DNA from: an uncultured Campylobacter sp.
GTDB taxonomy: Bacteria > Campylobacterota > Campylobacteria > Campylobacterales > Campylobacteraceae
NCBI RefSeq assembly: GCF_937959485.1
Contig: NZ_CALGPY010000006.1
Span: 29,994-93,993, forward strand
Direction of reading: 5' to 3'
DNA: 64,000 bases
Positions 8,074 to 44,445 of the stretch are shown one piece after another. A program made the translations under genes and the position numbers. The notes under the pieces are model-generated. The model worked only from the letters and a program-made list of their open reading frames with translations. It was not told the origin of the DNA and ran no database searches. The stretch's first letter is position 1. Every line of letters starts with the position of its first letter.

Positions 8074-8683
8074 ATCGCGCATATTTGGAATTCTTGGGAT
8101 TTAAAAAAGCTTTAGCTAACGGGGTTTTAGAATCTGATTGATATTAAAATTTTAAAATTTCTAGCCTTTGGAATTCTTAGAATTTTAAAGATTTTTATAT
8201 TTGCGAGATCTTAGGGTGTCATCAATCTTAAAATTTGGAATTTTAAAAAATTCCAAATTTTAAAATCCTCACAACCAAAATTATTGAAATTTTTAAGCTT
8301 TGAAATTTTCGAAATTTTAAAGCTTAAATATGCTTAAAATTTAAGAATTACGCAGATCGTAAAACCCTAAATCCTAAAATTTTGCGCTTACATGGGATTT
8401 TGAAATTTTGCTTGTAAGCCGGATTTTAAAATTCGCGCCCAGCTGAATTTAAAATTTTAAAATTTCGCCGCAAAATAACGCATGGACGCAAAATTTCTGC
8501 TCGCACATACTTTAAAAGCTCGCGTAAGTTTTAAGTTTCGCAGAAGCTATGTAAGCAAGTATAAATTATCTACGCCGAGTGCTTTGACTCGTTATAGCTC
8601 TTTGTGCCACCAGCTTAAAATATCCGCGAGGTGATAAATTCCGCGGACTGAGCTAATTTAAGCCCATTATTAGATTAGTTATG

Positions 8684-8848: not shown

Positions 8849-9478
8849 CTAGCCGCCTAGGATACTGCCTAACAGCAGCACCGGCATCATTAGCGGCATT
8901 ACAATGAACCCTTGTATATCGGTATCCATTTTCGCATCGCGCTCGCTTTTGATCCCGCTATCGACCGCTATACGCGCAGGGTACTCGATCGGCACGCCTA
9001 GGCGGTGTGATCTGCGCAGCTCGTCGTGATCTTTTAGGCGCTTAAAATATTTGCCTTCGATCAGATAAGAGTAGCGAAACGTAGAGCTATACGCGGGCTC
9101 CAGCTGCTCTGGGTCGTCCATCAGCTTAGCCTGCACGGATAGCGGCAGATCGTATTTTACGAGCTCGATTTCGTGCTGGATATACGCAGCATCGCTGCCC
9201 TCGTTATATCTGTCGATCGTGAGCATACTTACGTTGCGCCTTATCGCGTCTTTATTCAGCGACGCCAGACTCGCGACCTTGGCGCGCACAGCGCTGAGAT
9301 TCGCATCAAATACGTAATCGTAAATCTCGCCGCTCATACGCAGCTGACCGCCAGATGCCGCGCTCATCGCGACGATGTGCTCGCGCCCTTGCATGTAGCC
9401 CGGCAAATTCTTACTCGCACATCCGCTAAAAATTCCACAGCATAGCGCCAAAAGCGCGCCATAAATCCAAAATTTCAT
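8849..9478 (-). CDS. putative lipoprotein, function unknown
   Basis: 209 aa. Signal peptide with lipobox (MKFWIYGALLALCCGIFSGC). Confidence 0.6.
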   Translation of the reverse strand: MKFWIYGALLALCCGIFSGCASKNLPGYMQGREHIVAMSAASGGQLRMSGEIYDYVFDANLSAVRAKVASLASLNKDAIRRNVSMLTIDRYNEGSDAAYIQHEIELVKYDLPLSVQAKLMDDPEQLEPAYSSTFRYSYLIEGKYFKRLKDHDELRRSHRLGVPIEYPARIAVDSGIKSERDAKMDTDIQGFIVMPLMMPVLLLGSILGG

Positions 9479-30708: not shown

Positions 30709-30970
30709 GTGCCTCGGCGCAAGGGTTTGAGGCGCAGCGATAGTATGCGTCGCGACGTAGCGGCGAAGCGTGGCCTGGCGGCGTTAAGATGCGTCGTTGC
30801 GGCGTGCGGTATGGTACGGTGCAGCATAAGTGCGCCCGAAATAAAACTATTTGCTTGCGCGGAGTCGGTTTTATTTTGCCGTATATGACGAAGCAGAGCC
30901 CGGGCACTTAGGCATAGCAGCAGAGTAAAGATATATACGACAAATTTCATTCTGCTAGGTCTAATCCGGG

Positions 30971-31363
30971 CTAATCATAATTAAAGTTATATGGTTCGTA
31001 GCCGAAAATATGCAATGTCTTTAAAGCCAGCTCTCTGATCTCTATCCAGGATTTGTTCTGATAGACCAAGTAATAGCCATCTTCTTCCCCCTTTAATATA
31101 CTGTCATCTTCAGTGTACTTATCTATGAGCTCCTTAAGTTCTCTTAGCGCATCCCTCTCGTATGGCAGGAAGCAAAATCTAAATTGCCCTAATAAAGCAT
31201 TCTTGCATTCATCATATAGCCAATCTACTATTTCGTCTGCCAATACATAGTAGTCCTTTGTGGGATGAACGATATATTTGTCCTGATATTCCAAAGAAGC
31301 CATTCGACTTAGATGACACATAAGAGCACCTTTCTCAAATATCTCTTTTCCGTTAATTTGCAT
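30971..31363 (-). CDS. island family A protein (copy 1 of 4), candidate immunity-type protein
   Basis: 130 aa. Aligns along its length with 35044..35439 (MQINGKEIF.KG.LM..L.RMASLEYQDKY...YERDALRELK...NKSWIEIRELALKT..IFGY). Preceded by the conserved leader repeat. Confidence 0.7.
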   Translation of the reverse strand: MQINGKEIFEKGALMCHLSRMASLEYQDKYIVHPTKDYYVLADEIVDWLYDECKNALLGQFRFCFLPYERDALRELKELIDKYTEDDSILKGEEDGYYLVYQNKSWIEIRELALKTLHIFGYEPYNFNYD

Positions 31364-31781
31364 TTGGGTTTCCTTTTATTGGGATGTGGGTTTCGTTGGT
31401 TTTGGATTTTAAATCCCCGCGCTCATAAAAATCATCAAGAGTGAAACCAAGTATATTCAGTAGTTTTAATGACTTCTCCATTATCTTTTTCCAAATTTCA
31501 GACATATTATCATATATCTCATCGTAGTCATATTTGCTATAAAAATAATCGATCATTTCTTTATACTCTGCTATGGCTTTTAGTTCTGTTTCTGTAAATA
31601 GAAATTTGTATTCCGGTCTCTGGGCTATCTCTAGAGGATTATATACATATTCGACTAATTCGCCCGGTGTTGCATATTCATCGATAGTGGAATTATCTAT
31701 ATATCTAATCTGATGTTTTCTAGATGCAAGACAATATAAAGGCTCGACGATAAAAGCCTTTTGTGCATTATTTTTCTGCAT
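31353..31781 (-). CDS. island family A-related protein (divergent copy)
   Basis: 142 aa. Shares the CLAS...Y, TE.ELKAIAEYKEMI and KSLKLLNILGFTLDDF blocks with family A. Its last 12 codons are encoded by the leader repeat of the next gene. Confidence 0.65.
   Translation of the reverse strand: MQKNNAQKAFIVEPLYCLASRKHQIRYIDNSTIDEYATPGELVEYVYNPLEIAQRPEYKFLFTETELKAIAEYKEMIDYFYSKYDYDEIYDNMSEIWKKIMEKSLKLLNILGFTLDDFYERGDLKSKTNETHIPIKGNPNAN
31361..31395 (-). repeat. island leader repeat, copy 1 (CATTTGGGTTTCCTTTTATTGGGATGTGGGTTTCG on the plus strand)
   Basis: Read directly from the sequence. It covers the start codon, the ribosome-binding site and about 20 nt upstream of 30971..31363. Confidence 0.85.
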
Positions 31782-31814
31782 TTGGGTTTCCTTTTATTGG
31801 GATATGAGTTTGCC
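31779..31814 (-). repeat. island leader repeat, copy 2
   Basis: CATTTGGGTTTCCTTTTATTGGGATATGAGTTTGCC, upstream of and overlapping the start of 31353..31781. Confidence 0.85.
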
Positions 31815-31873
31815 CGCATTATATCGTAATATATTTTTAAAATTCTCGCAGAAATTATCATTTTATAAAACTA

Positions 31874-32176
31874 CTATTTTAAAAGCGCAATTTGTTTTAA
31901 AGCCTTTTTCGCGCACTCCCTCAAATCCTCTTCGCTTAATGAATCACCTACCGTATCATCACCCCTCAACTCTTCGTCCGGTTTGAATTCATCGATATCG
32001 GTAAGAAGCCTGTTTAGCGGCTCATAATATTCATCGGAAAAATTTTTATCATTAATAAATTTATCCCAATATATCTCTTCAAATTCAAATACGTCGATTC
32101 TATTTTGCAAAAATCCTATATTATTTTTATATATTCCTCTATCACAATGAGCTCCTTTTGGATGTATTTTAATCAC
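31874..32176 (-). CDS. small acidic protein, colicin-type self-immunity-like (tentative)
   Basis: 100 aa. The C-terminal pattern DEFKPDEELRGDDTVGDSLSEEDLRECAKKAL resembles colicin-like immunity domains, judged from memory only. Confidence 0.5.
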   Translation of the reverse strand: MIKIHPKGAHCDRGIYKNNIGFLQNRIDVFEFEEIYWDKFINDKNFSDEYYEPLNRLLTDIDEFKPDEELRGDDTVGDSLSEEDLRECAKKALKQIALLK

Positions 32177-32441
32177 CCGCCGCTTTAATACCTAGAACCA
32201 ACCATAAATTACTACCGATATTCACGCCTTCGCATAAATTTTTTATAATTGTTAAGTCGTTAGAAGAAATTTTTATATCATATTCATACATTTGAACTAA
32301 AAAATCTTCCAGCGCTATACCATATTCTCCAGCCTTAACCAGTTCTTCCAAATAAATTACAAAGTCGCGCCGACCGACTTCGGCAAATTCATCTTTGTAA
32401 TTACTGAATAAATTTAAAAATATCGGATCGCTGTATCTCAT
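32169..32441 (-). CDS. MafI-family-like immunity protein
   Basis: 90 aa. The core AGEYGIALEDFLVQMYEYDIKISSNDLTIIKNL matches the MafI-type motif as I remember it (GE.GLALE.L...LYEYDI.I). Confidence 0.6.
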   Translation of the reverse strand: MRYSDPIFLNLFSNYKDEFAEVGRRDFVIYLEELVKAGEYGIALEDFLVQMYEYDIKISSNDLTIIKNLCEGVNIGSNLWLVLGIKAAGD

Positions 32442-32487
32442 TCGCTTCTTTCCTTAAATTTATTTCTCGTAGCCGCTTCATAATCTT

Positions 32488-32967
32488 CTAGCTTCTAATT
32501 TCTATTTGAATATCAAGCAAGTCATCGTGATCTGGGTATTTGGCAGTCTCCGAGAGCGTAAATTTTATCACGTCTAACAACTGCCTAGCCAGATCGCTGT
32601 ATTTTTTCTTAAATGCATTAAAATTTAAGAAAATTAGCTTTAAATCGTCTCGAACGCCTTGCTTATTTTTTAAACCGTATCGTGAGTTTTCTTCTTTTTC
32701 CTCGATATATTCGCTATAGCTTTCCCACTCGTCTTTATCTTTATATTGCTCCCACTCTTCCTCTTTGTAGTCTTTCCATTCCTTAAATCGCAGAAACCAA
32801 AAGAAATCTGCGAATGCATCAGGGCCGATACGTAGCGGTAAAGACAGCTTTTCGGATAAATATGAGTATAACTTATGCTCTATTTCTTTGGGACAATAAT
32901 CATGCCACTCATCAATATATCTTCTGTCTTTTTGCAACTCATCAAAGTCAATCACTACTTCTATCAT
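32488..32967 (-). CDS. hypothetical acidic W/E/K/Y-rich protein
   Basis: 159 aa ORF inside the co-oriented array. No motif recognised. Confidence 0.55.
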   Translation of the reverse strand: MIEVVIDFDELQKDRRYIDEWHDYCPKEIEHKLYSYLSEKLSLPLRIGPDAFADFFWFLRFKEWKDYKEEEWEQYKDKDEWESYSEYIEEKEENSRYGLKNKQGVRDDLKLIFLNFNAFKKKYSDLARQLLDVIKFTLSETAKYPDHDDLLDIQIEIRS

Positions 32968-33059
32968 TTTTCCTCACCCCAACTATGCTAACACATATTT
33001 TCTTAAAATTCTAAAAATCAAACAAACGCAAATTAACGCGAACTCGCCTTTATTAAATT

Positions 33060-33620
33060 TTAGTACAAATCAGACCAAAAAGGCACATACGGGCATTTTC
33101 TAATCGGCTCAAGAGGATTTTTACTAAATTCCCTCAAAAAGTAGTCATATAAATTTTTCCCATAATAAATGACATCGGTATAGTGTATAGATAAGACCGG
33201 TGGATCCGGTAATTTAAGACACGGCATATATCTATGGGAATATACGGGTATAATCTTAGGCGCGATTTTGGCTGCCTCTAGTATAATGGCTCGCTTGCGA
33301 GATTTGTCTTCGGGCATCGGACCCCATTTTTGCGTATTCCAATAGCTCTCATTTGGAAAAATTTCATCAATAGGATCGTTTTTTAAGTACTCAAAGACGT
33401 AGTTCATGGCCTGCTTTATCTCCTTTATATTTTCATCGCTAAAGTCTCTCCAATTATAAAATTCTACCGAAATGGGCAATGTATATGATAAAAAATCTCT
33501 TAGGCTTTTTGGAAATTTAAACTCATAAATTTGCTCTATTTTGTCTATTTCGCCCTCTTTCAAACCATCGCTCAATTCTATGCCGCTCTTTTCTAGCAGC
33601 TCTTTTATTTGCTTATACAT
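33060..33620 (-). CDS. SMI1/KNR4 (SUKH superfamily) immunity-type protein
   Basis: 186 aa. N-terminal pattern LEKSGIELSDGLKEGEIDKIEQIYEFKFPKSLRDFL, plus IPVYSHRYMP...PVLSIHYTDVIYYGKNLYDYF, typical of SMI1/KNR4 proteins. Confidence 0.65.
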   Translation of the reverse strand: MYKQIKELLEKSGIELSDGLKEGEIDKIEQIYEFKFPKSLRDFLSYTLPISVEFYNWRDFSDENIKEIKQAMNYVFEYLKNDPIDEIFPNESYWNTQKWGPMPEDKSRKRAIILEAAKIAPKIIPVYSHRYMPCLKLPDPPVLSIHYTDVIYYGKNLYDYFLREFSKNPLEPIRKCPYVPFWSDLY

Positions 33621-33645
33621 ATTCTATTTTATCCTTATAAGGCTT

Positions 33646-34020
33646 TTAGTCGTAATCGAAGTCATCAAGCTCATAACCAAAAATTTGGATTGTTTTTAGA
33701 GCTAATTCGCGTAGTCCGCAAAAGGTGCTATTGTGGTATATAAAATCTTCATAGTCTGTCATAGAAGCCTCTTCCTCCCAAAATTTTGAATCACACTCCG
33801 TAAATTTATCTAGCATTTTGGCTATCGCTTTACGTTCCTCCATACTGAAATAAATTTTGTTTGATTCCGCTAGGGCTATTTTGCAAGCGCTCTCACAATC
33901 TTCTATTAAATCTATGCACAACAAATACTTATCCTTTGTGGGGTTAAGCATATATTTTTCTTGGCATTTTAATGAAGCAAGGCAGCATAATTCTCTCAAT
34001 AGCCTTTCTTTTATTGACAT
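33646..34020 (-). CDS. island family A protein (copy 3)
   Basis: 124 aa. CLASLKCQEKY...MEERKAIAKML...LRELALKTIQIFGYELDDFDYD. Confidence 0.7.
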   Translation of the reverse strand: MSIKERLLRELCCLASLKCQEKYMLNPTKDKYLLCIDLIEDCESACKIALAESNKIYFSMEERKAIAKMLDKFTECDSKFWEEEASMTDYEDFIYHNSTFCGLRELALKTIQIFGYELDDFDYD

Positions 34021-34036
34021 TTTATTCTCCTAAATT

Positions 34037-34648
34037 TTATATCCCGTACCACTTCGTTACATTTCCCTCTTCGTCGATATCGACCTCTATGTGTTCGTAT
34101 TTATTGTAGAGGCTAGGAATTAAAATTTCATCATAATATTTTTTGCCGCATTCGGTGATAAATATATACATATTATGATGGCACCACCGATTAGGCTCTT
34201 CCCAAAAAGCGCAGTCTGCGTGAGTATAATTTTTTAGAGGTTCGTATGAGCGGGCTATAAATTTATCTAAATTATAAAAGAAATTTTCTCTTAAAATTTT
34301 CCATTCTTCAAATTTTATTATATTTAAATTTATATTAGCGCTAGTTTTATATTTTATGTCGGTATCTATGAAATTATTTAGATAAAACTGCCCAAAGAGC
34401 ATTATTAAAATATCTTTTACATTCTCATCACATAAATTAAAATTATGAATTAATGTGCTGGCGATAGAGTCGGTTTCATAAACTTCGGTGCTTTCCATTA
34501 GGCTAAACGCCTCGAGCTCATAAAAATCTAGCGATCTTTTCCCGCTTGCAGCTTGGAAATCTTTAAAAATCTTAAACCTAAAATCTTCCGCTTCGCTAAA
34601 GAAATATACGTATGGATTTAAATTTAGATCAAGTGCTTTTACTCTCAT
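34037..34648 (-). CDS. hypothetical protein
   Basis: 203 aa ORF, in-array, co-oriented, AT-rich codon usage. Confidence 0.55.
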   Translation of the reverse strand: MRVKALDLNLNPYVYFFSEAEDFRFKIFKDFQAASGKRSLDFYELEAFSLMESTEVYETDSIASTLIHNFNLCDENVKDILIMLFGQFYLNNFIDTDIKYKTSANINLNIIKFEEWKILRENFFYNLDKFIARSYEPLKNYTHADCAFWEEPNRWCHHNMYIFITECGKKYYDEILIPSLYNKYEHIEVDIDEEGNVTKWYGI

Positions 34649-34680
34649 TTTATACCGTCCAAATTATTGTTTTGCGCATT

Positions 34681-35019
34681 TTAGCCTTGTTTTGCATAAT
34701 AAGCTCTTCCCTGCTCTGTTTCTGTTACGCAAAAATATTTGCTATTTACGCCGACCGGCTCATAATTTTTATCATCTCTTAAAATATTTAAAATTTCAGA
34801 TTTATCGTGTATCTCTTTCATTTCTGTATCATAACCCCAATTTGAACTAAACAATCTTATATAACCTTGCTCGTATAAGGACAATAAAATTTCTTTCGCC
34901 ACTTTAAGCGAATTGGCAACGTTAATAGAATTTAATTCCCAAACGATCTCCCATAAAGGGATATAATCGCCATCTTCAACTATTCCCGATAAAATAGTTA
35001 AAATCGTCTTTTTATTCAT
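34681..35019 (-). CDS. hypothetical small protein
   Basis: 112 aa ORF, in-array. Confidence 0.55.
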   Translation of the reverse strand: MNKKTILTILSGIVEDGDYIPLWEIVWELNSINVANSLKVAKEILLSLYEQGYIRLFSSNWGYDTEMKEIHDKSEILNILRDDKNYEPVGVNSKYFCVTETEQGRAYYAKQG

Positions 35020-35043
35020 TTAAAACCGCATTTCCGAACCAGT

Positions 35044-35439
35044 CTAATCAAAGTCATAGTTGAAGTCATCTAAATCATATCCGAAAATTTGGATTGTTTT
35101 TAAGGCTAGCTCTCTGATCTCTATCCAAGATTTATTGTGATAGACCAAATATTCATAATCATCTACGTATAATGATCTATCGTCCTTAAAGTTTTTAAGA
35201 ATAAGAGACTTAAGCTCTCTTAGTGCATCCCTTTCGTATGACAAGAAATAAAATTCAAATTCCTCCAATAGGGCATTAGCGCAGGAATCACATAAAAAAT
35301 ATACCATCTCCTTAGGATTTTCGCAATCTTCATCTGTAGTGTGCACAAGATATTTATCCTGATATTCCAAAGAAGCCATTCGCCACAGATAAAACATAAG
35401 CCCACCTTTATAGAATATCTCTTTTCCATTAATTTGCAT
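35044..35439 (-). CDS. island family A protein (copy 4)
   Basis: 131 aa. Closest paralog of 30971..31363 and preceded by the same leader repeat. Confidence 0.7.
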   Translation of the reverse strand: MQINGKEIFYKGGLMFYLWRMASLEYQDKYLVHTTDEDCENPKEMVYFLCDSCANALLEEFEFYFLSYERDALRELKSLILKNFKDDRSLYVDDYEYLVYHNKSWIEIRELALKTIQIFGYDLDDFNYDFD

Positions 35440-35473
35440 TTGGGTTTCCTTTTATTGGGATATGGGTTTCGTC
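35437..35473 (-). repeat. island leader repeat, copy 3
   Basis: CATTTGGGTTTCCTTTTATTGGGATATGGGTTTCGTC, upstream of 35044..35439. Confidence 0.85.
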
Positions 35474-35814
35474 TAGCATTCTAAACTCACATATTTTAAT
35501 AAAATTTTCGGTCTTATATACAGTTCTATCTGCACCATTATGTCTATAGCAAAATTTTGTCCTATTTCTATAAATTCGCCATCTTTATTTCTTCTGATGT
35601 TTAAGGACTCGATGCATTCGGCGGTAAATTCCACAGCTGTCTCCCTGCCTGCTTTTATAGTAATTTCCACCCATCCCTCGACTATACAATATGTAAATAT
35701 TAGCCCGTCTATTTCGAACGTATATTTTCCAATATCGCTATCTATTTCATCCGGGTAAAAACCAAAAAAATCGCTCATCTCCATCACGTCGGGATACGTT
35801 TTTATATATGTCAT
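35473..35814 (-). CDS. hypothetical small protein
   Basis: 113 aa ORF, in-array. A degenerate leader-like sequence lies upstream. Confidence 0.55.
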   Translation of the reverse strand: MTYIKTYPDVMEMSDFFGFYPDEIDSDIGKYTFEIDGLIFTYCIVEGWVEITIKAGRETAVEFTAECIESLNIRRNKDGEFIEIGQNFAIDIMVQIELYIRPKILLKYVSLEC

Positions 35815-35845
35815 TTTATGCCTTCCTTTTGGGATGATAGTTATA
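35812..35845 (-). repeat. degenerate leader-like repeat
   Basis: CATTTTATGCCTTCCTTTTGGGATGATAGTT resembles the leader repeat (CATTT..TTCCTTTT.GGGAT). It lies upstream of 35473..35814. Confidence 0.45.
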
Positions 35846-35880
35846 AATTTTATACTTTAATCATGCCGAGAAAATAAATT

Positions 35881-37044
35881 TCATACAATTACATACACCG
35901 AGCTTTGATTAAATTTAGCCTCTGAAAAATCTACGATCTTTTCATTATCTCTTAAAGTATAAAGCTCGAAATCTGCGCTCAGCTCATCGATATTATAGAA
36001 ATCCAAACATAAAGCAAATCTACTGTTCTCAATATCCATATTTTCGATCTTTTCCTTTACCAATTTCAAAAATAAAAGGCATTCTTTAATAAAATCATCT
36101 TCCTTTAAATTTGGATTTTTGATCTCCACTTCATTGATCGACCACTCAAAATCGCTTAAGCCTTGATATATTGAAGAATTAATTAAAATGTTCTCTGTTG
36201 TGGCTATTCTTTCTCTTTTAAGATTCTTGATAAAAAATATTCCTGTGTCAAGATAGATCAGGCCTTCGCGCAATAGCTGCTTTAATTGCGATATTTTCAG
36301 ATCTTTGATTGAGCCGCTAAGAGCAATAAATTTAATTAAATTCGGATCGGCATACAAAGTTCCTCTTTTTATCTCTCTTGCTTCTTGCACTCTGGAAAAT
36401 AGCTCTTCATTATTTTTAGGCAGAAGAAAAACCGCTTTGTTCAAATTAACCTCTTTTTTATCTATCGTCACTTTTGCCTTGCTGTTTTTCTCGCAAAATT
36501 TTAAAAAGTTGATTCCATATTTAATCTCGTCGTTTAGCCCTATACAGCCAAAACCCTTGCTATCATGCGGATAGACGGCTAAATTTAAACTCGGAAAAAC
36601 TATAAAACACCATTCGTTTATCGAATAATCATAGCACATTAAAAATTTAGCCAGCTCTTTTATGTCGTCCCATTTCAGAATGTCCATTCTTATGCACATA
36701 GCGGGCAACGGATATTCTTTATCTCTAGCTAGAGAAAAATACTCATTTTGTTCTTGCAAAATTCCAAGATCTTTAAATTTATCGTATAACGGCTTTACCT
36801 GCGAGATTGCTTTATATTTTTTGTATACTTTATCATCACACATTAGAGCGCTTACGATAAATACTTCATCGCTATATTTTCTAAAAAAGTTATCGAATAA
36901 TTTTATCGCTAAATTTACTCCGCTTAGCCAGCCCTTGCTTTCGATCTCAAAGAAACCGATCCAGTTTTTAGAAGCGCTGAAGCTGCTAAAATTTATATCG
37001 CTCAGCCTTAAACTACTATTTTTCAAATTTAATAACTTTTTCAT
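35881..37044 (-). CDS. hypothetical protein, the largest ORF of the array
   Basis: 387 aa. No catalytic or secretion motif recognised. Confidence 0.6.
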   Translation of the reverse strand: MKKLLNLKNSSLRLSDINFSSFSASKNWIGFFEIESKGWLSGVNLAIKLFDNFFRKYSDEVFIVSALMCDDKVYKKYKAISQVKPLYDKFKDLGILQEQNEYFSLARDKEYPLPAMCIRMDILKWDDIKELAKFLMCYDYSINEWCFIVFPSLNLAVYPHDSKGFGCIGLNDEIKYGINFLKFCEKNSKAKVTIDKKEVNLNKAVFLLPKNNEELFSRVQEAREIKRGTLYADPNLIKFIALSGSIKDLKISQLKQLLREGLIYLDTGIFFIKNLKRERIATTENILINSSIYQGLSDFEWSINEVEIKNPNLKEDDFIKECLLFLKLVKEKIENMDIENSRFALCLDFYNIDELSADFELYTLRDNEKIVDFSEAKFNQSSVYVIV

Positions 37045-37112
37045 CTTTACCCACCGTAATTTTTGCTTTTGCTAAATTATACACCTTATTTGCGAAGCAA
37101 AGATCATTTATA

Positions 37113-37508
37113 TTAATTTTCATAGAAAAATTTGATTTTATAAAAATTTTCATCCCCTGACGCAACCACTAATAATAAGCTTTTTATACGGCGAAATCTA
37201 TCGAAAATATTCGGCTTTGTATCTTCTTGATATTTATACGTTTTAAAACATTCGCTTTTTGCGTCTATATCTACGTCGCGCCAACTTCCGTTTAGAAATA
37301 TATCATTAGAGATAGAAATAATGCCTTGCATTATTTCTGGGTCCAACTCTTTGTTTTTATAATGCCGCAAAATCTTTTTTAAATCAGCTTCTAATTTCCA
37401 ATATTCATCATCGGACCATAGATTATTATCCAAAATCATACCTATAAAGGAATTTGCATCATATCTATCATCAAATGCGGTATTTCTATAAAAATTTACA
37501 AGATTCAT
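37113..37508 (-). CDS. island family B protein (copy 1 of 2)
   Basis: Aligns with 37513..37899 from MNLVNFYRN... (W.D.DYWKL...L..IL..Y.NK.L..EI...I..I.ND...IFDRF.R.K.L). Start moved to the internal ATG 37508, which removes the overlap with the upstream paralog. Confidence 0.65.
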   Translation of the reverse strand: MNLVNFYRNTAFDDRYDANSFIGMILDNNLWSDDEYWKLEADLKKILRHYKNKELDPEIMQGIISISNDIFLNGSWRDVDIDAKSECFKTYKYQEDTKPNIFDRFRRIKSLLLVVASGDENFYKIKFFYEN

Positions 37509-37512
37509 TGCA

Positions 37513-37899
37513 TCAATCCTTTGGAGCATACCAAAAACCGCTATTGTCAAGCTTTTCTTTGAATACGATGCTGTTGCACAGAACCTTTAATCTTTCAAAT
37601 CTATCATATATGCTAGGCACTACGCCGTCGCTGTTTTTCGCACACAATATATTGCTTACATAAATTTCCGATTTGTCCTCCACGCCGATAACATCATTAA
37701 ATATCGCTAGTATTGCGATGAAAATTTCTTTTGGAAGCGTTTTGTTATGATAAAAGCTCAAAATCTGCATTAAAGTTTTATCCAACTTCCAATAGTCGCA
37801 ATCCGACCAAGTTTTTTGATAGATAAATTTTCCGACAAACGAATTAATGCTGAATTTATCAGAATTCGTTGAATTTTGGTATAAAAGCTTTAAATACAT
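37513..37899 (-). CDS. island family B protein (copy 2 of 2)
   Basis: 128 aa tandem paralog of the previous gene. Confidence 0.65.
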   Translation of the reverse strand: MYLKLLYQNSTNSDKFSINSFVGKFIYQKTWSDCDYWKLDKTLMQILSFYHNKTLPKEIFIAILAIFNDVIGVEDKSEIYVSNILCAKNSDGVVPSIYDRFERLKVLCNSIVFKEKLDNSGFWYAPKD

Positions 37900-37973
37900 T
37901 AATCACCGTCCTTTTTTCATTCTTTATTAAACATTTAGCCATCTTTATGACAAATTTATATTTATAAAATTGA

Positions 37974-38309
37974 TTATTTTCTGCTTGGCAACTCTTTAGA
38001 TAAAATTTTTGAATCAGTATACAATTTTTTCAAAAATTCTATCTCTTCTTGATCTAGCTCATCTAAAACCTCTTCTGTCGGTTTTTCGCTTAAAATTTTT
38101 CCATAAACCAAACTCAGCCTTTTATATGCGCGCGGGTTACCGTTCTTTTCAAATTGCTTTATTATAGCAATTCTGCACTCTTTTGTTATTTCAGAATTGC
38201 CCATAAAAAGATCTTTTATATCGCAAGAAGCGCTTTGCTCTTTATATAGATAAAATATCCACGCAAATAATATTATAGCGGCGGCAATAAAGTAAATTTT
38301 ATTTTTCAT
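37974..38309 (-). CDS. island family C membrane-anchored protein (copy 1 of 2)
   Basis: 111 aa. N-terminal TM helix (IYFIAAAIILFAWIFYLY), then C..KD....N......C......Q......G..R.Y.RL, shared with 38318..38779. Confidence 0.6.
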   Translation of the reverse strand: MKNKIYFIAAAIILFAWIFYLYKEQSASCDIKDLFMGNSEITKECRIAIIKQFEKNGNPRAYKRLSLVYGKILSEKPTEEVLDELDQEEIEFLKKLYTDSKILSKELPSRK

Positions 38310-38317
38310 GAAATCTC

Positions 38318-38779
38318 TTATTCTTTTGGTTTTTTATCCGTGTAATATAGATGTATGACTTCATCCATGTTAATCTCTTTTTCCTTTCCGATCCGCTCGG
38401 TACACAATGTGAAATTTCCCTCCCTCAAAACGCACTTTTTTAATAAACCAACTATAAAGTCGTTATTTGTGCATAGATCTAAATTTCCAGAATGAAATTT
38501 TTTAATAAAATTTAGCTCTTCTTTGTCTAATTCTTGCTGCGCCTTTTTATCTACACAATATCTATCTAAAAAATATCGCTCATAAAAATAAAAAAGTCGC
38601 CTATGCCCCCCGCTGTTGCCATTATTAGCCCGTCGTATCAATTTTAATCTGCATTTTTGCTCCATACGATTGTAGTTTTGCCTCAACATATCGTTAATAT
38701 CACAAGGTGAAAAACTTAGCACCGAAAGAATAATATAAATATAAAGAAATATACTAATTATGATGAGAAAAAATTTCAT
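38318..38779 (-). CDS. island family C membrane-anchored protein (copy 2 of 2)
   Basis: 153 aa. N-terminal TM helix and the same Cys-spaced domain plus ELDKEELNFIKKF (compare ELDQEEIEFLKKL). Confidence 0.6.
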   Translation of the reverse strand: MKFFLIIISIFLYIYIILSVLSFSPCDINDMLRQNYNRMEQKCRLKLIRRANNGNSGGHRRLFYFYERYFLDRYCVDKKAQQELDKEELNFIKKFHSGNLDLCTNNDFIVGLLKKCVLREGNFTLCTERIGKEKEINMDEVIHLYYTDKKPKE

Positions 38780-38857
38780 TTTATATCCTTACTTATTTTT
38801 GGTTTTTTAGATATAACCGATCAATCATAGAATTTGCGATTTAATTAGTAATAAAAG

Positions 38858-38876
38858 TGGTGTCCTGCGTTGAATT
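38858..38876. repeat. partial copy of the tRNA-Lys 3' end (att-type direct repeat, distal copy)
   Basis: TGGTGTCCTGCGTTGAATT here versus TGGTGTCCTGCGTTGGATT at 42223..42241. That is 18 of 19 identical, in the same orientation. Confidence 0.8.
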
Positions 38877-40757
38877 TTTACAACCCTCAGAATTCCCCCG
38901 AACACTCGATTACAGAATATCAGTATATAGTCTTTTAAAAAACTATATAAAAATATTTGTCGTCTCTTAAGGAAACTTTAAATAATAAGCAAAAATGAGT
39001 TAAGAAGTTTCAAACCTTAAGAAATTTAGCTTAAGCCTTATAGCAGCTCAAGGTTTAAAATCTTAAAGATGTTGATTAATACATTTTCACTAAATGCCTT
39101 AAGCGCCTATCTGTAAGATGTTTGTTCTTTAAGGCAGAGAACAAATAAAAACAGATAAAAGCTTAAAGCCTTCTTCGTCCTTATGAACAAGGGGATTATA
39201 TTAGAAAGATCTTAAAAGCTTCTTAGCTCAAATTTATTAATCTCTTCTTTTACTTTCATTTGCAGATAAAAAGTCTAAAGGCTTAGAGGCTTCTTTAAAA
39301 GTATAAAGGAGGCCATGCTATTTTCTTATATAGTATTAAGATAGCCAAAGGCTTTTAAAATATGGGAGAGTGTTTAAAAAATGATGGGTTGCCACCCTTA
39401 ATACTTCATACCTAAATATCTTCAATATCCTTTAGATACTCAAGCATTCTATTAGAGCAAAGCCCAAAATATCAAAAGCAAGGCTACACATAAAAAATAT
39501 CCTTAAAATGGATAGGCTAAGAGGTTGCTCTATCTATGATAAAAGAGCTACTTTGGTAAATAATATCCCCGCAAGCGATAAAAATATATTAAGATCAAAT
39601 ACTATTTATAATATAGTACTAGGCAAAAAATACTCCTAAAAGAAATAAAAAATTTATTCTATCCACTAGATATATAAAATTCCGCCTATGCAATATAATA
39701 TCCCTACAAGGAATAATCGCAACGGCGGTAGCAGACGAGCAAATGCTCCGCTAGCGACGAGCGAGGCAAGCCCCGTAACCTTTAACGGAGGCGCTACCTC
39801 CACGCGGCTTTTCAGATAGCCCCCCTTTTTCAAATTTAATGCACTTAGGCAATAAATAAAACGAAGAAGAAGGCTATCTAGGGAAAAAACTCTAGGGGCA
39901 AAAAGACGTTACATCTTTAGAATTTAGTTAAAACAGAAGCTTTTTAGATTAATGTGCGAAGCTATAACGCACCTCTGCGATTTTTCTTATTACCCCAAAC
40001 CGCCAGCGGGGAACTAAAGATTAAGAATGCTTGATAAGCGTTTAAGCTTATCAATAAAAACATTACCGATAACGTAACCCATCGAAAAACCATAATATAT
40101 AAACTTTAAAGGCTACTTCAAAAGCCTAAAGGCTTTTTAACATATAAAACATTCTTTCTCCTTAGTAAAAACGTTATAAGATATTTCAAAAATACCTTAT
40201 GAAAACAATATAGCTGAAAAAGAAAAAAAATGGTGTGAGTTGTTTTTAAAAGACGGAGGTTATTTTAATAAACTTGGGTCTAAAGGCAATGAGGCAACCT
40301 GGTAAACCGAGCATTAAAAGATATGAAAGCTAATATGCAATATGCAAGAAATTCCTAGTAAAAAGCATAAGGCCAAAAAAGAATGGGAATGCTTCAGAAT
40401 TTATATAATCTATCGTGGCCCTATCCTCGCAAGCACTTACCTTCAGTATCAAAAGAAAGAAGACGAGTGCTCAAAAGGAGGCAATGCACTTAAAATTAGG
40501 GCGAGCGCTTAGGAAAGGAGTAGTGATGAAGTAATATACGAGAAGGGAGGGAAAGTAAGTGCTTTTTTAAGAGGATAAGGCGGCTCATACCCCAATTACG
40601 GTAAGCTGTAGAATGACAAACTGCGGATAGATTTGCTTTAACTCTCTATCTTACTGTTTTTCCGCTTATCCGGAAATTTCTAAAGTACATAAGCATATAG
40701 ACTCAAGGACGCTATCCATAGTAGGAATAATACCTTTAGCCCTCCCCCTCTCTCCCC
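38877..40757. other. ORF-free AT-rich segment inside the integrase mini-element
   Basis: The six-frame track has no ORF of 60 aa or more between 38780 and 40757. Stops are dense in all frames and the plus strand is purine-rich. Confidence 0.8.
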
Positions 40758-41990
40758 TTAAAATTTAAACCCCAGCCCCTTTAAATAACCTAGCCACCAT
40801 GTTAGAACCCTACGAGTATTCTCAACGTTCGTAGCTTTGTTATAAATCTTTTGTATCTCTCTTTGTGCATGAAAAAGGGTACGTTCAATGCTATAAGGAT
40901 CCAGCTTGTTCTCATGTATTTTTTCATATGCAAAGGTTTCTAGTATCTTTCTAAAAGAGTGAAAAACTAGTCTATTCTTAGCTATTACGGGAGCATAGGT
41001 TTTAAGCGCTTTAACTAGAGTCATATCGCTTAGTACCTCTCCTTGCGTATTGGCAAAGCATAGCAAGCAGCTGCTATTATGAGCGTGTAACCTTTGCAGC
41101 CATTGCCCTACTTCTCTAGGAAGTCCAAGATGTTCATCTCCATTGCTTTTTACCTTATTCTCATCTTGCGGGAATAGTAAGTAGTATTCTCCATCATCGC
41201 CCACTTTTAAATGCTCATGGGTTAAATTTCTTACATTTGAGCTTCTTAGCCCCGTAAGCAGTCCAAAGATCAAAGCATTCTTAACACCTATTTGATGAGG
41301 ATAGTTCATGATAAATTTAATAAGTACGGTTAAATCCAAGTCATCTTTTATATATGGGTATTCGCTATGGCGAGGTATATTATAAAAGTCCTTAAACACC
41401 TCTTCTGCAAATAATGGATTTTTGGAAATATCTCTTATGCGAGCATATCTGAATAGTCTTTTAATGAGTTTGAATAAAATTTCTAAGGAAGCGTATTTTT
41501 CATTATCGTAATAATAATCCAGTATCGGCATAATATCCTTTTTGCTTATCTTGTTTATATCTTTGTCACAAATATCCCTTAAAGCTTTAAAGCTCATATC
41601 TCGTCTTTTAGAGGTTGCTAATGCAACATTGCCGTTATGTCTGCGAAACTGTCTATAAACGCTTGCCAGAGTATTTTTAGCAGGAGTCAGCTTAGCAGAA
41701 TCATCTATCATTAAACCTTTAAGAGTTTCTTTGGCCTCGCTTAGGCTTATCTCATCTACATTACCTAAAGACTTAATCAGCTTGCCGCCTATGCAATAGT
41801 GATAGTGCCTATGGATTGTTTGCTCTCCCTTTTTAGTAGATGAGCGGTAAAATCTAACTGCTATATGCTCATCGATCATTTCCACCATAGTGTTTTTGCG
41901 ATGAGGCAGGGAGAAATTTCTGATGACTTTATCGGGATCCGTTTTAAAAGCCGGATCGTCTTTAATTTTAGAAAAAACTTTCATAACCAC
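40758..41990 (-). CDS. tyrosine-type site-specific integrase (P4-like)
   Basis: 410 aa. Catalytic region TGLRSSN (R), HSFRK (H-x-x-R), LFHAQ and IYNKA (Y). Long N-terminal arm-binding-like region. Adjacent to a tRNA gene. Confidence 0.88.
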   Translation of the reverse strand: MVMKVFSKIKDDPAFKTDPDKVIRNFSLPHRKNTMVEMIDEHIAVRFYRSSTKKGEQTIHRHYHYCIGGKLIKSLGNVDEISLSEAKETLKGLMIDDSAKLTPAKNTLASVYRQFRRHNGNVALATSKRRDMSFKALRDICDKDINKISKKDIMPILDYYYDNEKYASLEILFKLIKRLFRYARIRDISKNPLFAEEVFKDFYNIPRHSEYPYIKDDLDLTVLIKFIMNYPHQIGVKNALIFGLLTGLRSSNVRNLTHEHLKVGDDGEYYLLFPQDENKVKSNGDEHLGLPREVGQWLQRLHAHNSSCLLCFANTQGEVLSDMTLVKALKTYAPVIAKNRLVFHSFRKILETFAYEKIHENKLDPYSIERTLFHAQREIQKIYNKATNVENTRRVLTWWLGYLKGLGFKF

Positions 41991-42149
41991 TTATCCTTTA
42001 AAATTTCATATAGTTTCATAGGACAAATTATAAAAGTTTCCAAAGAGCTTAGCAAGCTTAAGAGCTACTATACATTTTTTAATATATAGTAGTTTCTCTT
42101 AAACCGCCTGTATAATCTAGCGTTTTTAACATTTGAAATTTTTTTGAAA

Positions 42150-42180
42150 AAATTTGAAAAAGCCGTAAAACAGGGCTTTT
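42150..42180 (-). terminator. candidate intrinsic terminator after the tRNA-Val/Asp/Lys cluster
   Basis: In the minus sense AAAGCC-CTGTTTTAC-GGCTTT is followed by TTCAAATTTTTT, about 45 nt downstream of tRNA-Lys. Confidence 0.45.
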
Positions 42181-42222
42181 AAAAAAATCAAAAAACTAAA
42201 AATAGGGGGGAAATTTGATAGA

Positions 42223-42241
42223 TGGTGTCCTGCGTTGGATT
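42223..42241. repeat. att-type direct repeat, tRNA-proximal copy (3' end of tRNA-Lys)
   Basis: Matches 38858..38876 at 18 of 19 positions. Confidence 0.8.
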
Positions 42242-42298
42242 CGAACCAACGACCCCCTCATTAAAAGTGAGATGCTCTACCGACTGAGCTAGCAAGAC
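42223..42298 (-). tRNA. tRNA-Lys (anticodon UUU)
   Basis: Hand-folded. Acceptor GTCTTGC/GCAGGAC, anticodon stem TCTCA/TGAGG with loop CTTTTAA, T-arm GTTGG-TTCGAAT-CCAAC, encoded CCA. Confidence 0.9.
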
Positions 42299-43290: not shown

Positions 43291-44445
43291 ATGATACTGA
43301 TCGCAGGACCCTGCGTGATCGAAAGCCGCGAGCTGATAATGCAAGTCGCGGAAAGTTTGCGCAAATTTAACGAAATAAGCGGGGTGGAATTTTACTTCAA
43401 AAGTAGCTTCGATAAAGCCAACCGCACCAGCATCTCAAGCTTCCGCGGCCCGGGGCTTGAGCGCGGCTGTGAAATTTTAGCCGAAGTAAAGGAAAAGTTC
43501 GGCTATAAAATTTTAACCGACATCCACGAAAGCTACCAAGCAGAGCCCGCCGCGCGCGTCGCCGACGTGTTGCAAATACCTGCGTTTTTGTGCCGCCAAA
43601 CCGACCTACTCGTCGCTGCAGCCAGCACGCAAGCGGTAGTAAACATCAAAAAAGGTCAGTTTTTATCGCCACAGGTGATGAAACACAGCGTCGAAAAGGT
43701 GCTGCAAACCCGCAGCGCACGGGCTTATACTCCGCAAAGCGGCGCGGCATCTAGCGATACAAAGGCCGCTCAAAACAGCGCCTGCTCCGACGATGCCAAA
43801 ATTTGCGGTGCGCCGAGCGACGCTCGAAGCAGTACAGATAGCGGATCTTTGGCGTTAGACGCGCAAAATTCTTGCGGCGCACAGTCGGGCGCACAAAATT
43901 TTATTCATACTTGCGGCACTAAAAGTGGTGCCGAAAATGCTGCTAAAGGTACGGCGACACCTTGTGCCGCGCAAAGCGATAACGAAGCGCAAAACACGCC
44001 GCAGCCAAACTTATCTCATACTTGCAACGCGCAAGACAGCTCGATAAGTGCTGCACAAAATGCCCCACAGCCAAGCGGCGAAGAGATGCACGATCTGGCA
44101 CGCCGCCACGGCGTTTGGCTCACCGAGCGTGGCAGCACCTTCGGCTACGGAAATTTGATCGTCGATATGCGCTCGCTGCCGATTATGCGCGAGTTTGCGC
44201 CGGTCATTTTCGACGCTACGCACAGCGTGCAGATGCCTAGTATCGGCGCTACGAGCGGCGGCGACTCGCGCTTCGTGCCGTACCTTGCACGAGCGGCGGC
44301 GGCCGTGGGCGTGGACGGCTTTTTTTACGAAACGCACCCAGATCCCGCCCACGCGCTTTCTGATGGACCGAATATGCTAAATTTGCAGCAGCTAGAGCGC
44401 GTCGTAGCGCAGACGCTCGCAATTCAAAAAGCGCTCGGATTTTAG
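43291..44445 (+). CDS. kdsA: 3-deoxy-8-phosphooctulonate synthase (KDO8P synthase) with a low-complexity insertion of about 130 aa
   Basis: 384 aa. [47 protein letters not shown] ... [39 protein letters not shown]. The conserved blocks are split by an S/A/Q/N-rich insert. Confidence 0.9.

Follow-up and report, generated by a model that had tools for sequence, protein, structure and literature searches.

The 64,000-nucleotide stretch of Campylobacter DNA analysed here (hereafter, the window) contains a 3.38-kb element (38858-42237), which is probably still functional and is integrated in the 3' end of a tRNA-Lys gene. It holds a single integrase gene alongside 1.9 kb of non-coding sequence, and no other open reading frame (ORF) of at least 60 aa is listed for it. 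The 1.9 kb is a mosaic of three kinds of sequence, namely a neutral spacer, a conserved core of ~0.5 kb and a CTTAAG-containing arm next to the attachment site. The core (39700-40200, minus strand), a candidate structured RNA or single-stranded cis element, is under strong purifying selection; it is too conserved and too strongly folding for junk, and is therefore probably either a new structured RNA or a DNA signal for transfer or replication. We have very little doubt about the reality of the element and the mosaic structure of its non-coding DNA taken together, and consider it very likely that the core is functional.

The element is delimited by a 15-mer, TGGTGTCCTGCGTTG, of which the window has only two exact copies, at 38858 and 42223. 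The latter copy (42223-42237) constitutes the 3' terminal 15 nt of the tRNA-Lys(UUU) gene (42223-42298, minus strand) and forms the attL core, and the former (38858-38872) is the attR core and outer boundary of the element, so that the insertion in the tRNA-Lys 3' end is flanked by exact 15-bp direct repeats of that end. In the metagenome loci L044-L047, these repeats enclose a different element, an int-rep one of 5.3 kb, and the loci become homologous to the window again exactly at 38873, which identifies this position as the true outer boundary. Together, the two copies of the 15-mer and the boundary in the sibling loci bear out the original prediction that non-coding DNA is the sole cargo of an integrase element. 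The tyrosine integrase (40758-41990, minus strand; 410 aa) is intact, matches PF00589 and contains the complete R-K-H-R-H/W-Y catalytic set (R249, K, H344-x-x-R347, H374 and Y383), with dN/dS values of 0.07-0.14 against 10 of 13 loci. Across loci, the same integrase adjoins tRNA-Lys(UUU), tRNA-Lys(CUU) or tRNA-Arg(CCU), which have the 3' end GGACACCA in common. The region upstream of the integrase, including the tRNA-proximal arm (41991-42222), is conserved, with a divergence of 0.026-0.07. The element does not encode an excisionase. A vacant attB site is expected to consist of tRNA-Lys followed by CTTTTATTACTAATT (empty-site pattern, GGTTCGAATCCAACGCAGGACACCACTTTTATT); no empty site was found among the retrieved loci, and none of the 64 loci yielded a circular-junction contig corresponding to the excised form. 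The host genes flanking the element are 92-93% identical between copies.

Related integrases are found in sibling elements with a richer gene content. The L044 element encodes an HUH Rep (PF23343, E = 6.6e-6; HUH-like motif PHIHAIV), and the L048 element encodes a Rep and a relaxase-like protein (PF03432, E = 0.001); the window element has lost, or never had, rep and relaxase genes. ORFs of 298 and 137 aa located after the integrase in other loci were rejected as element genes on the evidence of L051, where a giant RTX operon terminates with them, although homologues do occur in the L044 element, within its att repeats.

As originally predicted, the interval 38780-40757 is devoid of ORFs of at least 60 aa, the longest closed one being 56 aa, and stop codons are dense in all six frames (38-58 per frame in ~659 codons). 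A quarter (25%) of mononucleotide shuffles of the same composition (34% GC) likewise lack such an ORF, so in DNA this rich in A and T chance could account for the missing ORFs; the oddity is rather that a bacterial genome should leave 1.9 kb non-coding in the first place. The prediction also held for the AT-rich composition and for the absence of the repeat typical of the long intergenic regions: AAATTTTAAAATTT, a host repeat with 24 occurrences at no more than one mismatch (0.6 expected), is missing between 29353 and 54460. The purine richness ascribed to the plus strand is correct in direction but mild in extent, at 53.8% (A 736 vs T 568). On reading the sequence, we found all three reported hairpins (38924-38949, 39122-39144 and 40031-40054) and the 18-mer pair at 39273 and 40278, the members of which are identical at 14 of 18 positions.

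The arm adjacent to attR (38873-39150) is conserved in 6 loci and contains, besides the first two hairpins, CTTAAG at 38966, 39016, 39030 and 39098 as well as variants of this motif. The enrichment of CTTAAG noted earlier around 38965-39105 is genuine, with 4 of the 17 sites in the window falling within 38966-39103; a fifth site of the element, at 42057, is located in the opposite, tRNA-proximal arm. A homologous CTTAAG-rich arm adjoins attR of the L044 element (nhmmer E = 4.4e-6), and similar CTTAAG-type motifs are present near attR of L048. The att-proximal arm probably holds candidate arm-type sites for the integrase or an accessory protein, and the CTTAAG motifs are most likely putative binding sites of the recombinase. 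The rest of segment C (39151-39559) is found only in copies retaining attR, with a divergence of 3-5%, and contains AAAGGCT-type repeats that include one member of the 18-mer pair. It is followed by segment B (39560-39699), a variable junction where the backbone shared with other loci ends and beyond which those loci continue with different DNA, either an RTX operon or a restriction-modification system. Between the core and the integrase stop, spacer A (40201-40757) is neutral and indel-rich, with a divergence of 0.14-0.29, 40-480 gapped columns per pair and, in most copies, a 180-bp insertion. The pyrimidine tract described as abutting the integrase stop is indeed present at the integrase end of this spacer (40741-40758), in a form that differs from copy to copy.

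The core was found in all 28 copies recovered, 25 of which, from different species-level genomes and metagenomes, make up our core alignment (A3). Its divergence is 0.013-0.032, versus 0.13-0.45 for integrase dS and 0.14-0.29 for the neighbouring spacer, which puts conservation of the core 6-15 times above that of synonymous sites. Conservation is highest in a near-invariant heart (39878-40036, minus strand; A3 columns ~172-330), which over the 25 copies has accumulated only 3 single-sequence substitutions and one 1-nt deletion, the latter in 3 copies. About a third of the loci with this integrase lack the core, which is thus dispensable for keeping the integrase; conversely, the core is retained in loci without any attR within 6-13 kb. 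No divergent homologues were detected, a degenerate core-pattern scan of metagenomes returning only copies of the window type. Paralogous integrases at tRNA-Leu were also considered, and these have neither a long ORF-free region nor a core and are often truncated.

Several small ORFs can be drawn within the core. The most conspicuous is a hydrophobic ORF of 43 aa (39962-40093, minus strand; MVFRWVTLSVMFLLISLNAYQAFLIFSSPLAVWGNKKNRRGAL), which overlaps the 40031-40054 hairpin and can be opened from an ATG in 23 of the 25 copies (33-43 aa), being broken in L019 and L014. No synonymous bias is apparent in its variable part, where 2 synonymous changes stand against 4 non-synonymous ones, one nonsense change and one frameshift. 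The ORF has no Shine-Dalgarno (SD) sequence of its own and no homologues outside this element family, and nucleotide conservation extends ~250 nt past it. As the sole cause of the conservation it is ruled out, given the absence of homologues and the invariance of the nucleotides in the two copies where it is broken. Two others, a 55-aa ORF (39666-39833, minus strand) and one of 43 aa on the plus strand of the GC-rich part, were discarded as gene candidates owing to single-base indels in many copies. More generally, ORFs in the core are disrupted by single-base indels, an ATG-to-ACG change, a nonsense mutation and a 2-nt deletion, and the nucleotides downstream of these lesions nevertheless stay invariant; hence, the core cannot be protein-coding.

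Predicted folding of the core is strong, with z scores of -5.8 for the minus (integrase) strand and -3.8 for the plus strand under RNA parameters, and of -4.4 and -3.3, respectively, under DNA parameters; spacer A, which served as control, gave -0.73. RNAalifold predicts three invariant long-range helices of 11-13 bp from the 25 copies, and consensus helix 3 is invariant or wobble-compatible throughout. The helices considered in A3 pair positions 38-55 with 178-195, 197-211 with 398-411 and 212-223 with 302-313. Where stem positions vary, the minus strand mostly retains G-U compatibility, with 28 further pair types versus 8-13 when the partners are slid. Neither RNAalifold nor pair counts revealed compensatory double substitutions in the 25 copies, and pairing in the core copies is no better than in shuffles; covariation is uninformative for the core because the copies are at least 95% identical. 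In one of the predicted long-range helices, the 5' strand (40166-40149) encompasses an SD-like sequence and start region and pairs with 40030-40013. The SD-like AAGGAG (40163-40158) is followed by a mini-ORF of 8 codons beginning with the ATG at 40152 (40126-40163 together, minus strand), the length of which varies from 8 to 13 codons by copy. A comparable arrangement is predicted for the L044 element, where a 12-bp perfect helix sequesters an SD sequence and a leader ORF, which in turn overlaps a second SD sequence and a 28-aa hydrophobic ORF; the non-coding part of L044 also contains a weak collinear homologue of the 5' half of the core (E = 0.0027 when the search is confined to that region). 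No significant similarity links the core to L048. No canonical terminator or convincing promoter was found for the core, the -10-like box reading TATAAC in the window, as against TATAAT in about 16 of the 25 copies. On the plus strand, the core contains no conserved promoter-like site, the nearest such sites being at 39536-39617 in segment B, where many copies have different DNA, and no antisense RNA gene was identified at the core.

Database searches did not connect the region to known RNAs, genes or replicons. Rfam scans of the window, the element and the core alone, at both gathering and permissive thresholds, returned no RNA family; the best scores in the region were below 19 bits (E ~1 or more), and SIB_RNA was dismissed as a chance-level match, with 16 bits versus a gathering score of 56. 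The search for gene remnants was equally negative: a six-frame Pfam scan of the 1.9 kb recovered nothing, toxin families included, and tblastn with proteins of the sibling elements (Rep, the 304/298-aa and 137-aa proteins and those of L048) gave nothing better than E = 0.09. Similarly, there was no match to the 1.9 kb in PLSDB plasmids and phages by blastn or in viral contigs by exact-pattern scans.

What, then, does the core do? The suggestion that the payload consists of non-coding RNAs or protein-binding sites has gained substance through the conserved folding core and through the CTTAAG cluster recurring in sibling elements. The core may be a non-coding RNA; that it acts as an RNA is a reading we hold tentatively, with a slightly less than even chance of being correct. 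The core would then be a folded transcript of the integrase (minus) strand, possibly an mRNA of the hok/aapA kind, in which the 5' ribosome-binding site and start codon (40163-40150) would be locked by the long-range helix to 40030-40013 and which would also encode the small hydrophobic ORF (33-43 aa). Such a toxin module could stabilise the element in its host, that is, have an addiction function. There is precedent in Helicobacter pylori, where control of the aapA1 toxin mRNA of the aapA1/IsoA1 pair by folding is established (PMC5416894). For the core, a type I toxin-like module specifically appears quite unlikely, and we infer each of its ingredients: transcription, the active strand, toxicity of the peptide and any antisense partner.

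The core might alternatively be cis-acting DNA, either an oriT or a rolling-circle origin (double- or single-strand), through which a relaxase or Rep from a co-resident element would move or replicate this integrase-only element in trans; the window element would then be a minimal hitcher of the 'iOriT' type. We regard this, the main rival reading, as unlikely. It accords with the Rep and relaxase-like genes of the L044 and L048 siblings, with a gene content in which the integrase, beside its att sites, is joined by no gene for a relaxase, mating pore or Rep (ORF list, six-frame Pfam), and with the significant folding under DNA parameters, which favours the strand expected to be displaced were Rep co-oriented with int. 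The core also contains a GGAGG-TAGCG-CCTCC hairpin, the loop of which is reminiscent of the CS-6 loop (TAGCGT) of ssoA origins. Moreover, integrative elements with just an integrase and oriT are reportedly common and outnumber their helpers (bioRxiv 10.64898/2026.01.13.699239). However, the core resembles no plasmid or phage record, shows no significant similarity to L048 and has only the weak homologue in L044. The sibling-element Rep (Rep369) is an orphan, with no relatives in the protein database, plasmids, phages or viral contigs. The nick-like CTTGATA at 40031 is altered in 3 of the 25 copies amid invariant bases and, being among the variable spots of the core, was ruled out as a pC194/phiX174-type nick site. 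Furthermore, both element types are predicted to sequester an SD sequence together with a start codon, a trait that points to translation control and that a DNA origin could do without, and an invariant block of 160 nt exceeds the usual needs of known origins.

It is improbable that the whole stretch is recombination architecture, i.e., an extended attP-type arm with candidate sites for the integrase, a bending protein and a directionality factor, in which folding would be incidental. The CTTAAG clusters at attR and in the tRNA-proximal arm, recurring in two sibling element types, fit this explanation, as does the over-representation of AAGGCT/AGCCTT (8 occurrences vs 0.66 expected, spread over 39033-40131); since no excisionase is encoded, extra cis sites could matter. 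Yet known arm sites of tyrosine integrases fall within about 250 bp of the crossover, whereas the distance from the core, which is set back behind a neutral spacer, is 850-1350 bp to attR and 2000 bp to attL. The core also persists in loci devoid of a nearby attR, and repeats cannot account for base-by-base invariance over 160 nt. Decayed cargo, the frameshifted and drifting remains of former element genes, was the other option raised originally and is very improbable for the region as a whole. The neutral rate and large indels of the spacer, the genes at the equivalent position of sibling elements and the ease with which random sequences of this composition lack ORFs are all compatible with decay. 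However, no remnants or plasmid and phage matches were recovered, and for the core decay is refuted by a divergence far below the synonymous one, the opposite of drift; it fits only the 0.56-kb spacer. Equally remote is the idea of a large structured RNA partnering the tyrosine integrase that is always its companion, as an RNA directionality or regulatory factor replacing the missing excisionase or as a chooser among the three tRNA targets ending in GGACACCA; if true, a tyrosine recombinase would here be carrying out site-specific integration as a ribonucleoprotein.

Comparison with known systems places the element among tRNA-targeting tyrosine-integrase islands and integrative mobilizable elements, including the relaxase-less 'iOriT' type (bioRxiv 10.64898/2026.01.13.699239). 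The integrase adjoins a tRNA gene, the far boundary is a direct repeat of the tRNA 3' end, one site receives different elements in different genomes, and conjugation and relaxase genes are absent. Unlike these islands, the window element has no protein-coding cargo, excisionase or recognisable oriT, and its only conserved payload is a 0.5-kb non-coding block without a match in a helper element. With type I toxin-antitoxin systems, such as hok/sok of plasmid R1 and aapA1/IsoA1 of H. pylori (PMC5416894), the core shares a putative small hydrophobic ORF whose C-terminal end is basic, an SD sequence and start codon near the 5' end that are held in a predicted long-range helix, a leader ORF (overlapping the hydrophobic ORF in the L044 sibling), high conservation at the nucleotide level and a location on a mobile element, where addiction makes sense. 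Points of difference are the lack of an identified antisense RNA gene, a hydrophobic ORF that is interrupted in 2 of the 25 copies and not preceded by an SD sequence of its own, the absence of any resemblance in sequence to known toxin or antitoxin families, and a conserved block (~500 nt) longer than aapA1-type loci.

Two further groups offer partial parallels. GOLLD and ROOL exemplify the large, structured non-coding RNAs of mobile elements and tRNA neighbourhoods; like them, the core spans hundreds of nucleotides, has strong predicted structure, resides on a mobile element beside tRNA genes and has no known function, but it has no Rfam model match or covariation support and is confined to one Campylobacter clade. 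The ssoA-type single-strand origins and the intergenic origin regions of rolling-circle plasmids and filamentous phages are non-coding, orientation-dependent, heavily hairpinned and a few hundred nucleotides long. The core has all of these traits as well as the TAGCG loop, and siblings of the element encode G2P/HUH-type Rep proteins; it differs from these origins in having no Rep gene in cis, conserved nick site or similarity to a known origin.

If the core is an RNA, it would constitute a new and unusually constrained non-coding gene as the sole payload of a mobile element. The element would then be a clean natural case of selfish DNA reduced to a recombinase, its sites and one RNA, and a tractable system for learning whether that RNA acts in addiction, regulation of excision or to the benefit of the host. 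Should the core turn out to be an origin used in trans, the element would be near the minimal size for a hitch-hiking genomic island and would bring Campylobacterota into the 'integrase plus origin only' class. In both cases, long ORF-free DNA beside integrases needs a conservation test before it is called decay.

We regard it as established that the region forms the backbone of a minimal integrative element that evolution has maintained. The 15-nt 3' end of the tRNA-Lys(UUU) gene (42223-42298), TGGTGTCCTGCGTTG, has exactly one further copy in the window, at 38858, and 232 bp separate the integrase gene (PF00589; minus strand, 40758-41990) from the tRNA gene. A scan for the integrase with one genome per species yielded 43 loci, nearly all of them in MAGs belonging to the Campylobacter gracilis group. 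Loci L044-L047 carry, in the same tRNA-Lys gene and between the same two 15-mers, a different 5.3-kb element comprising an integrase (P0003) 48% identical to that of the window, a 369-aa HUH/G2P-like Rep, 304-aa and 137-aa proteins, and 1.2 kb of ORF-free DNA. Since homology of these loci to the window restarts exactly at 38873, the window element spans 38858-42237; this comparison is the decisive evidence for the boundary. The non-coding DNA was rightly described in the original prediction as the only cargo, with the immunity-gene array on the left falling outside the element. The integrase retains a complete set of catalytic residues and, with a dN/dS of 0.07-0.14 against 10 of 13 loci, is judged to be alive. 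Furthermore, one integrase allele adjoins tRNA-Lys(UUU), tRNA-Lys(CUU) and tRNA-Arg(CCU), all of which have the 3' end GGACACCA in common, and thus the element has moved between sites. The CTTAAG arm beside attR (the far repeat, 38858-38872) recurs in three integrase subfamilies, which is most simply explained if the arm consists of putative recombinase-binding sites.

As predicted, no ORF of at least 60 aa occurs in any of the six frames between 38779 (stop of a 153-aa ORF) and 40758 (the integrase stop); no closed ORF exceeds 56 aa, and stop codons number 38-58 per frame. This absence alone is unremarkable at 34% GC, because 25% of shuffles of the stretch likewise lack an ORF of at least 60 aa; the true oddity is that 1.9 kb of a bacterial genome is non-coding. 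The hairpins, 18-mer pair and pyrimidine tract originally reported were all found in place, and CTTAAG is strongly clustered, with 4 of the 17 window sites inside 138 bp (38966-39103). The plus strand is purine-biased, but only mildly (53.8%). The repeat of the other long intergenic regions is indeed missing here: the palindrome AAATTTTAAAATTT has 24 copies in the window (at most 1 mismatch) versus 0.6 expected, and none between 29353 and 54460. This genome-specific repeated motif is found exclusively in host-type DNA (e.g., at 8147, 8452, 9782, 21074, 25593, 28968, 29340, 55771, 58574, and 59616). AAGGCT/AGCCTT-type motifs (AAAGGCTT), a set that includes the 18-mer pair, number 8 in 38873-40757 versus 0.66 expected, about 7 times the density of the remaining window (positions include 39033, 39166, 39278, 39348, 40109, and 40129), and may represent protein-binding repeats.

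To quantify conservation, we aligned the window with 13 loci segment by segment, taking integrase synonymous sites (0.13-0.45) and flanking host genes (92-93% identical) as the neutral yardstick. Spacer A (40201-40757) is neutral-like, with a divergence of 0.14-0.29, numerous indels and a 180-bp insertion in most copies. The core (~39700-40200) differs by 0.013-0.032 and is the same in every locus, including one with an integrase of only 84% identity. Segment C (38873-39559), with a divergence of 0.03-0.05, is confined to the six loci retaining attR; in the others, the shared sequence ends at ~39560-39690, attR is absent within 6-13 kb, and the DNA beyond belongs either to the terminal part of a giant RTX operon or to a BpuSI-like restriction-modification system. 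In some loci, the integrase is present without spacer A or core. A metagenome scan recovered 15 additional copies, all of the same type. In a 25-copy alignment, the only changes at positions 39878-40036 are three substitutions, each in a single sequence, and a 1-nt deletion shared by 3 copies. Because spacer A, lying between integrase and core, diverged freely, recent spread cannot account for the invariance of the core, which on this comparative evidence reflects selection. The decayed cargo considered in the original prediction thus fits spacer A only and is excluded for the core, the divergence of which is below neutral; judged from its conservation, the 0.5-kb core is established as functional at the nucleotide level.

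The core is neither a protein gene nor a gene remnant. Six-frame Pfam searches and tblastn with every sibling-element protein revealed no remnants. No Rfam family matches the core, nor was a match found among plasmids, phages and viral contigs. A 55-aa ORF in the GC-rich part was ruled out as a protein gene, single-base indels disrupting it in many copies. A 43-aa hydrophobic ORF (39962-40093, minus strand) has ACG in place of its ATG in 16/25 copies and an internal T-run of 4 or 5 bases; the frame is reachable from an in-frame ATG in 23/25 copies, the exceptions being L019, with a stop codon, and L014, with a deletion of 2 nt. Its variable part shows 4 non-synonymous versus 2 synonymous changes, and no relatives of the peptide were found outside the element.

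The segment 39650-40200 folds strongly, most of all as RNA of the integrase (minus) strand (z = -5.8, MFE -172 kcal/mol; plus strand, z = -3.8), with DNA parameters giving z = -4.4 and -3.3 for the minus and plus strands, respectively. Spacer A as control (minus strand, RNA parameters) gave z = -0.73, and sliding windows across the integrase gene gave no folding signal. The predicted consensus fold contains three long-range helices (11-13 bp) that are invariant, as well as a helix pairing ACUAAGGA..AAGAAUGU (40166-40149), including a Shine-Dalgarno-like AAGGAG and an AUG, with GCAUUCUU..UCUUUAGU (40030-40013). Variable stem positions on the minus strand are mostly wobble-compatible. There are no compensatory double changes, and pairing equals that of the shuffled control; hence, the predicted secondary structure is only plausible.

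When the non-coding 1.2 kb of the L044 element was searched, on the same strand only, with a profile built from the window-type non-coding DNA, two collinear matches emerged, to the CTTAAG-rich arm by attR (E = 4.4e-6) and the 5' half of the core (E = 0.0027). The L044 region carries a Shine-Dalgarno sequence and a 13-codon leader ORF, which overlaps another Shine-Dalgarno sequence as well as a hydrophobic ORF of 28 aa (MAFLKLRLDFILSVVFTLLAIFCIYGIG); the first Shine-Dalgarno sequence is predicted to be locked by a helix of 12 perfectly paired bp (AAGGGGAAUAAA / UUUAUUCCCCUU). This layout is akin to that of type I toxin mRNAs (hok/mok, aapA1; PMC5416894).

We tentatively infer that the core acts as a transcript from the integrase strand, for which a hok/aapA-like addiction module would be the most concrete version, albeit an unlikely one. 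Such a transcript is favored because predicted Shine-Dalgarno sequestration occurs in two divergent element types, because small hydrophobic ORFs are present, and because a stabilizing function makes sense on an element without other cargo. The main rival, a cis-acting transfer or replication origin that would be used in trans, is somewhat unlikely: genes for Rep and relaxase-like proteins are present in sibling elements, and islands of integrase and oriT only are now described as common (bioRxiv 10.64898/2026.01.13.699239), yet no similarity of the core to any helper or origin was found and its sole nick-like motif varies among copies.

Other loci illustrate the range of related elements and junctions. 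In Campylobacter geochelonis (CP053844; L048 5691-11577), a 5.9-kb element with ends marked by a 14-bp repeat of the 3' end of tRNA-Arg(CCU) encodes an integrase (35% identical), a Rep-like protein of 436 aa, a 68-aa ORF and a relaxase-like protein of 590 aa; it represents this element family in fuller form. A paralogous integrase (55-72% identical) beside tRNA-Leu(GAG) in the same genomes (L029-L042) is usually cut to ~325 aa or split and lacks the non-coding core, indicative of decaying remnants. In L001 and L008, the integrase (attL) adjoins tRNA-Arg(CCU), and the far repeat, an attR remnant, is a tRNA-Lys(UUU)-type 15-mer (at 9345 and 9310, respectively) followed by the immunity array; these hybrid configurations imply recombination between two element copies or chromosomal rearrangement. 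Many assemblies break at the integrase stop with its polypurine/polypyrimidine tract (40741-40758), or close to it, with contigs ending at the stop (L005, L013, L018, L024, L025) or beginning in the last 25-160 bp of the gene (L051, L052, L054, L059, L060, L062), which suggests that this junction is a recombination hotspot or differs among strains. One low-coverage metagenome contig (L057 1660-2107) has core and spacer, ~400 bp of other sequence and then an inverted tRNA-proximal arm preceded by GGCTACCACC, with no integrase; it could represent a nested or inverted element, insertion at a secondary site, or a chimera.

Just outside the element, a low-GC (30-35%) array of ~15 small minus-strand ORFs (30970-38780) includes two Imm41 immunity proteins and several internally duplicated genes (repeat families at 31000-31400, 33650-34000 and 35050-35470), and resembles an island of orphan immunity genes from a polymorphic-toxin locus; its position in other genomes is taken by an operon with a 2730-aa RTX protein (L051). 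At the tRNA end, 42111-42260 (plus strand) has a full-length, sub-threshold Rfam match to the H. pylori antisense RNA HPnc0260 (40 bits versus a gathering score of 59; E = 0.04), overlapping both the tRNA-proximal arm and the sequence complementary to the 3' half of tRNA-Lys. Further on, a KdsA-like (DAHP_synth_1) ORF of 384 aa (43291-44445) contains a ~100-aa low-complexity insertion mid-protein, rich in A, Q, S, and N, coinciding with a GC peak of 55-60%.

Integrase islands inserted in tRNA genes are a known kind of element. What is new is a copy with, as its sole payload, an ultra-conserved, strongly folding non-coding block without a database match, a candidate new RNA or origin family restricted to one Campylobacter clade.
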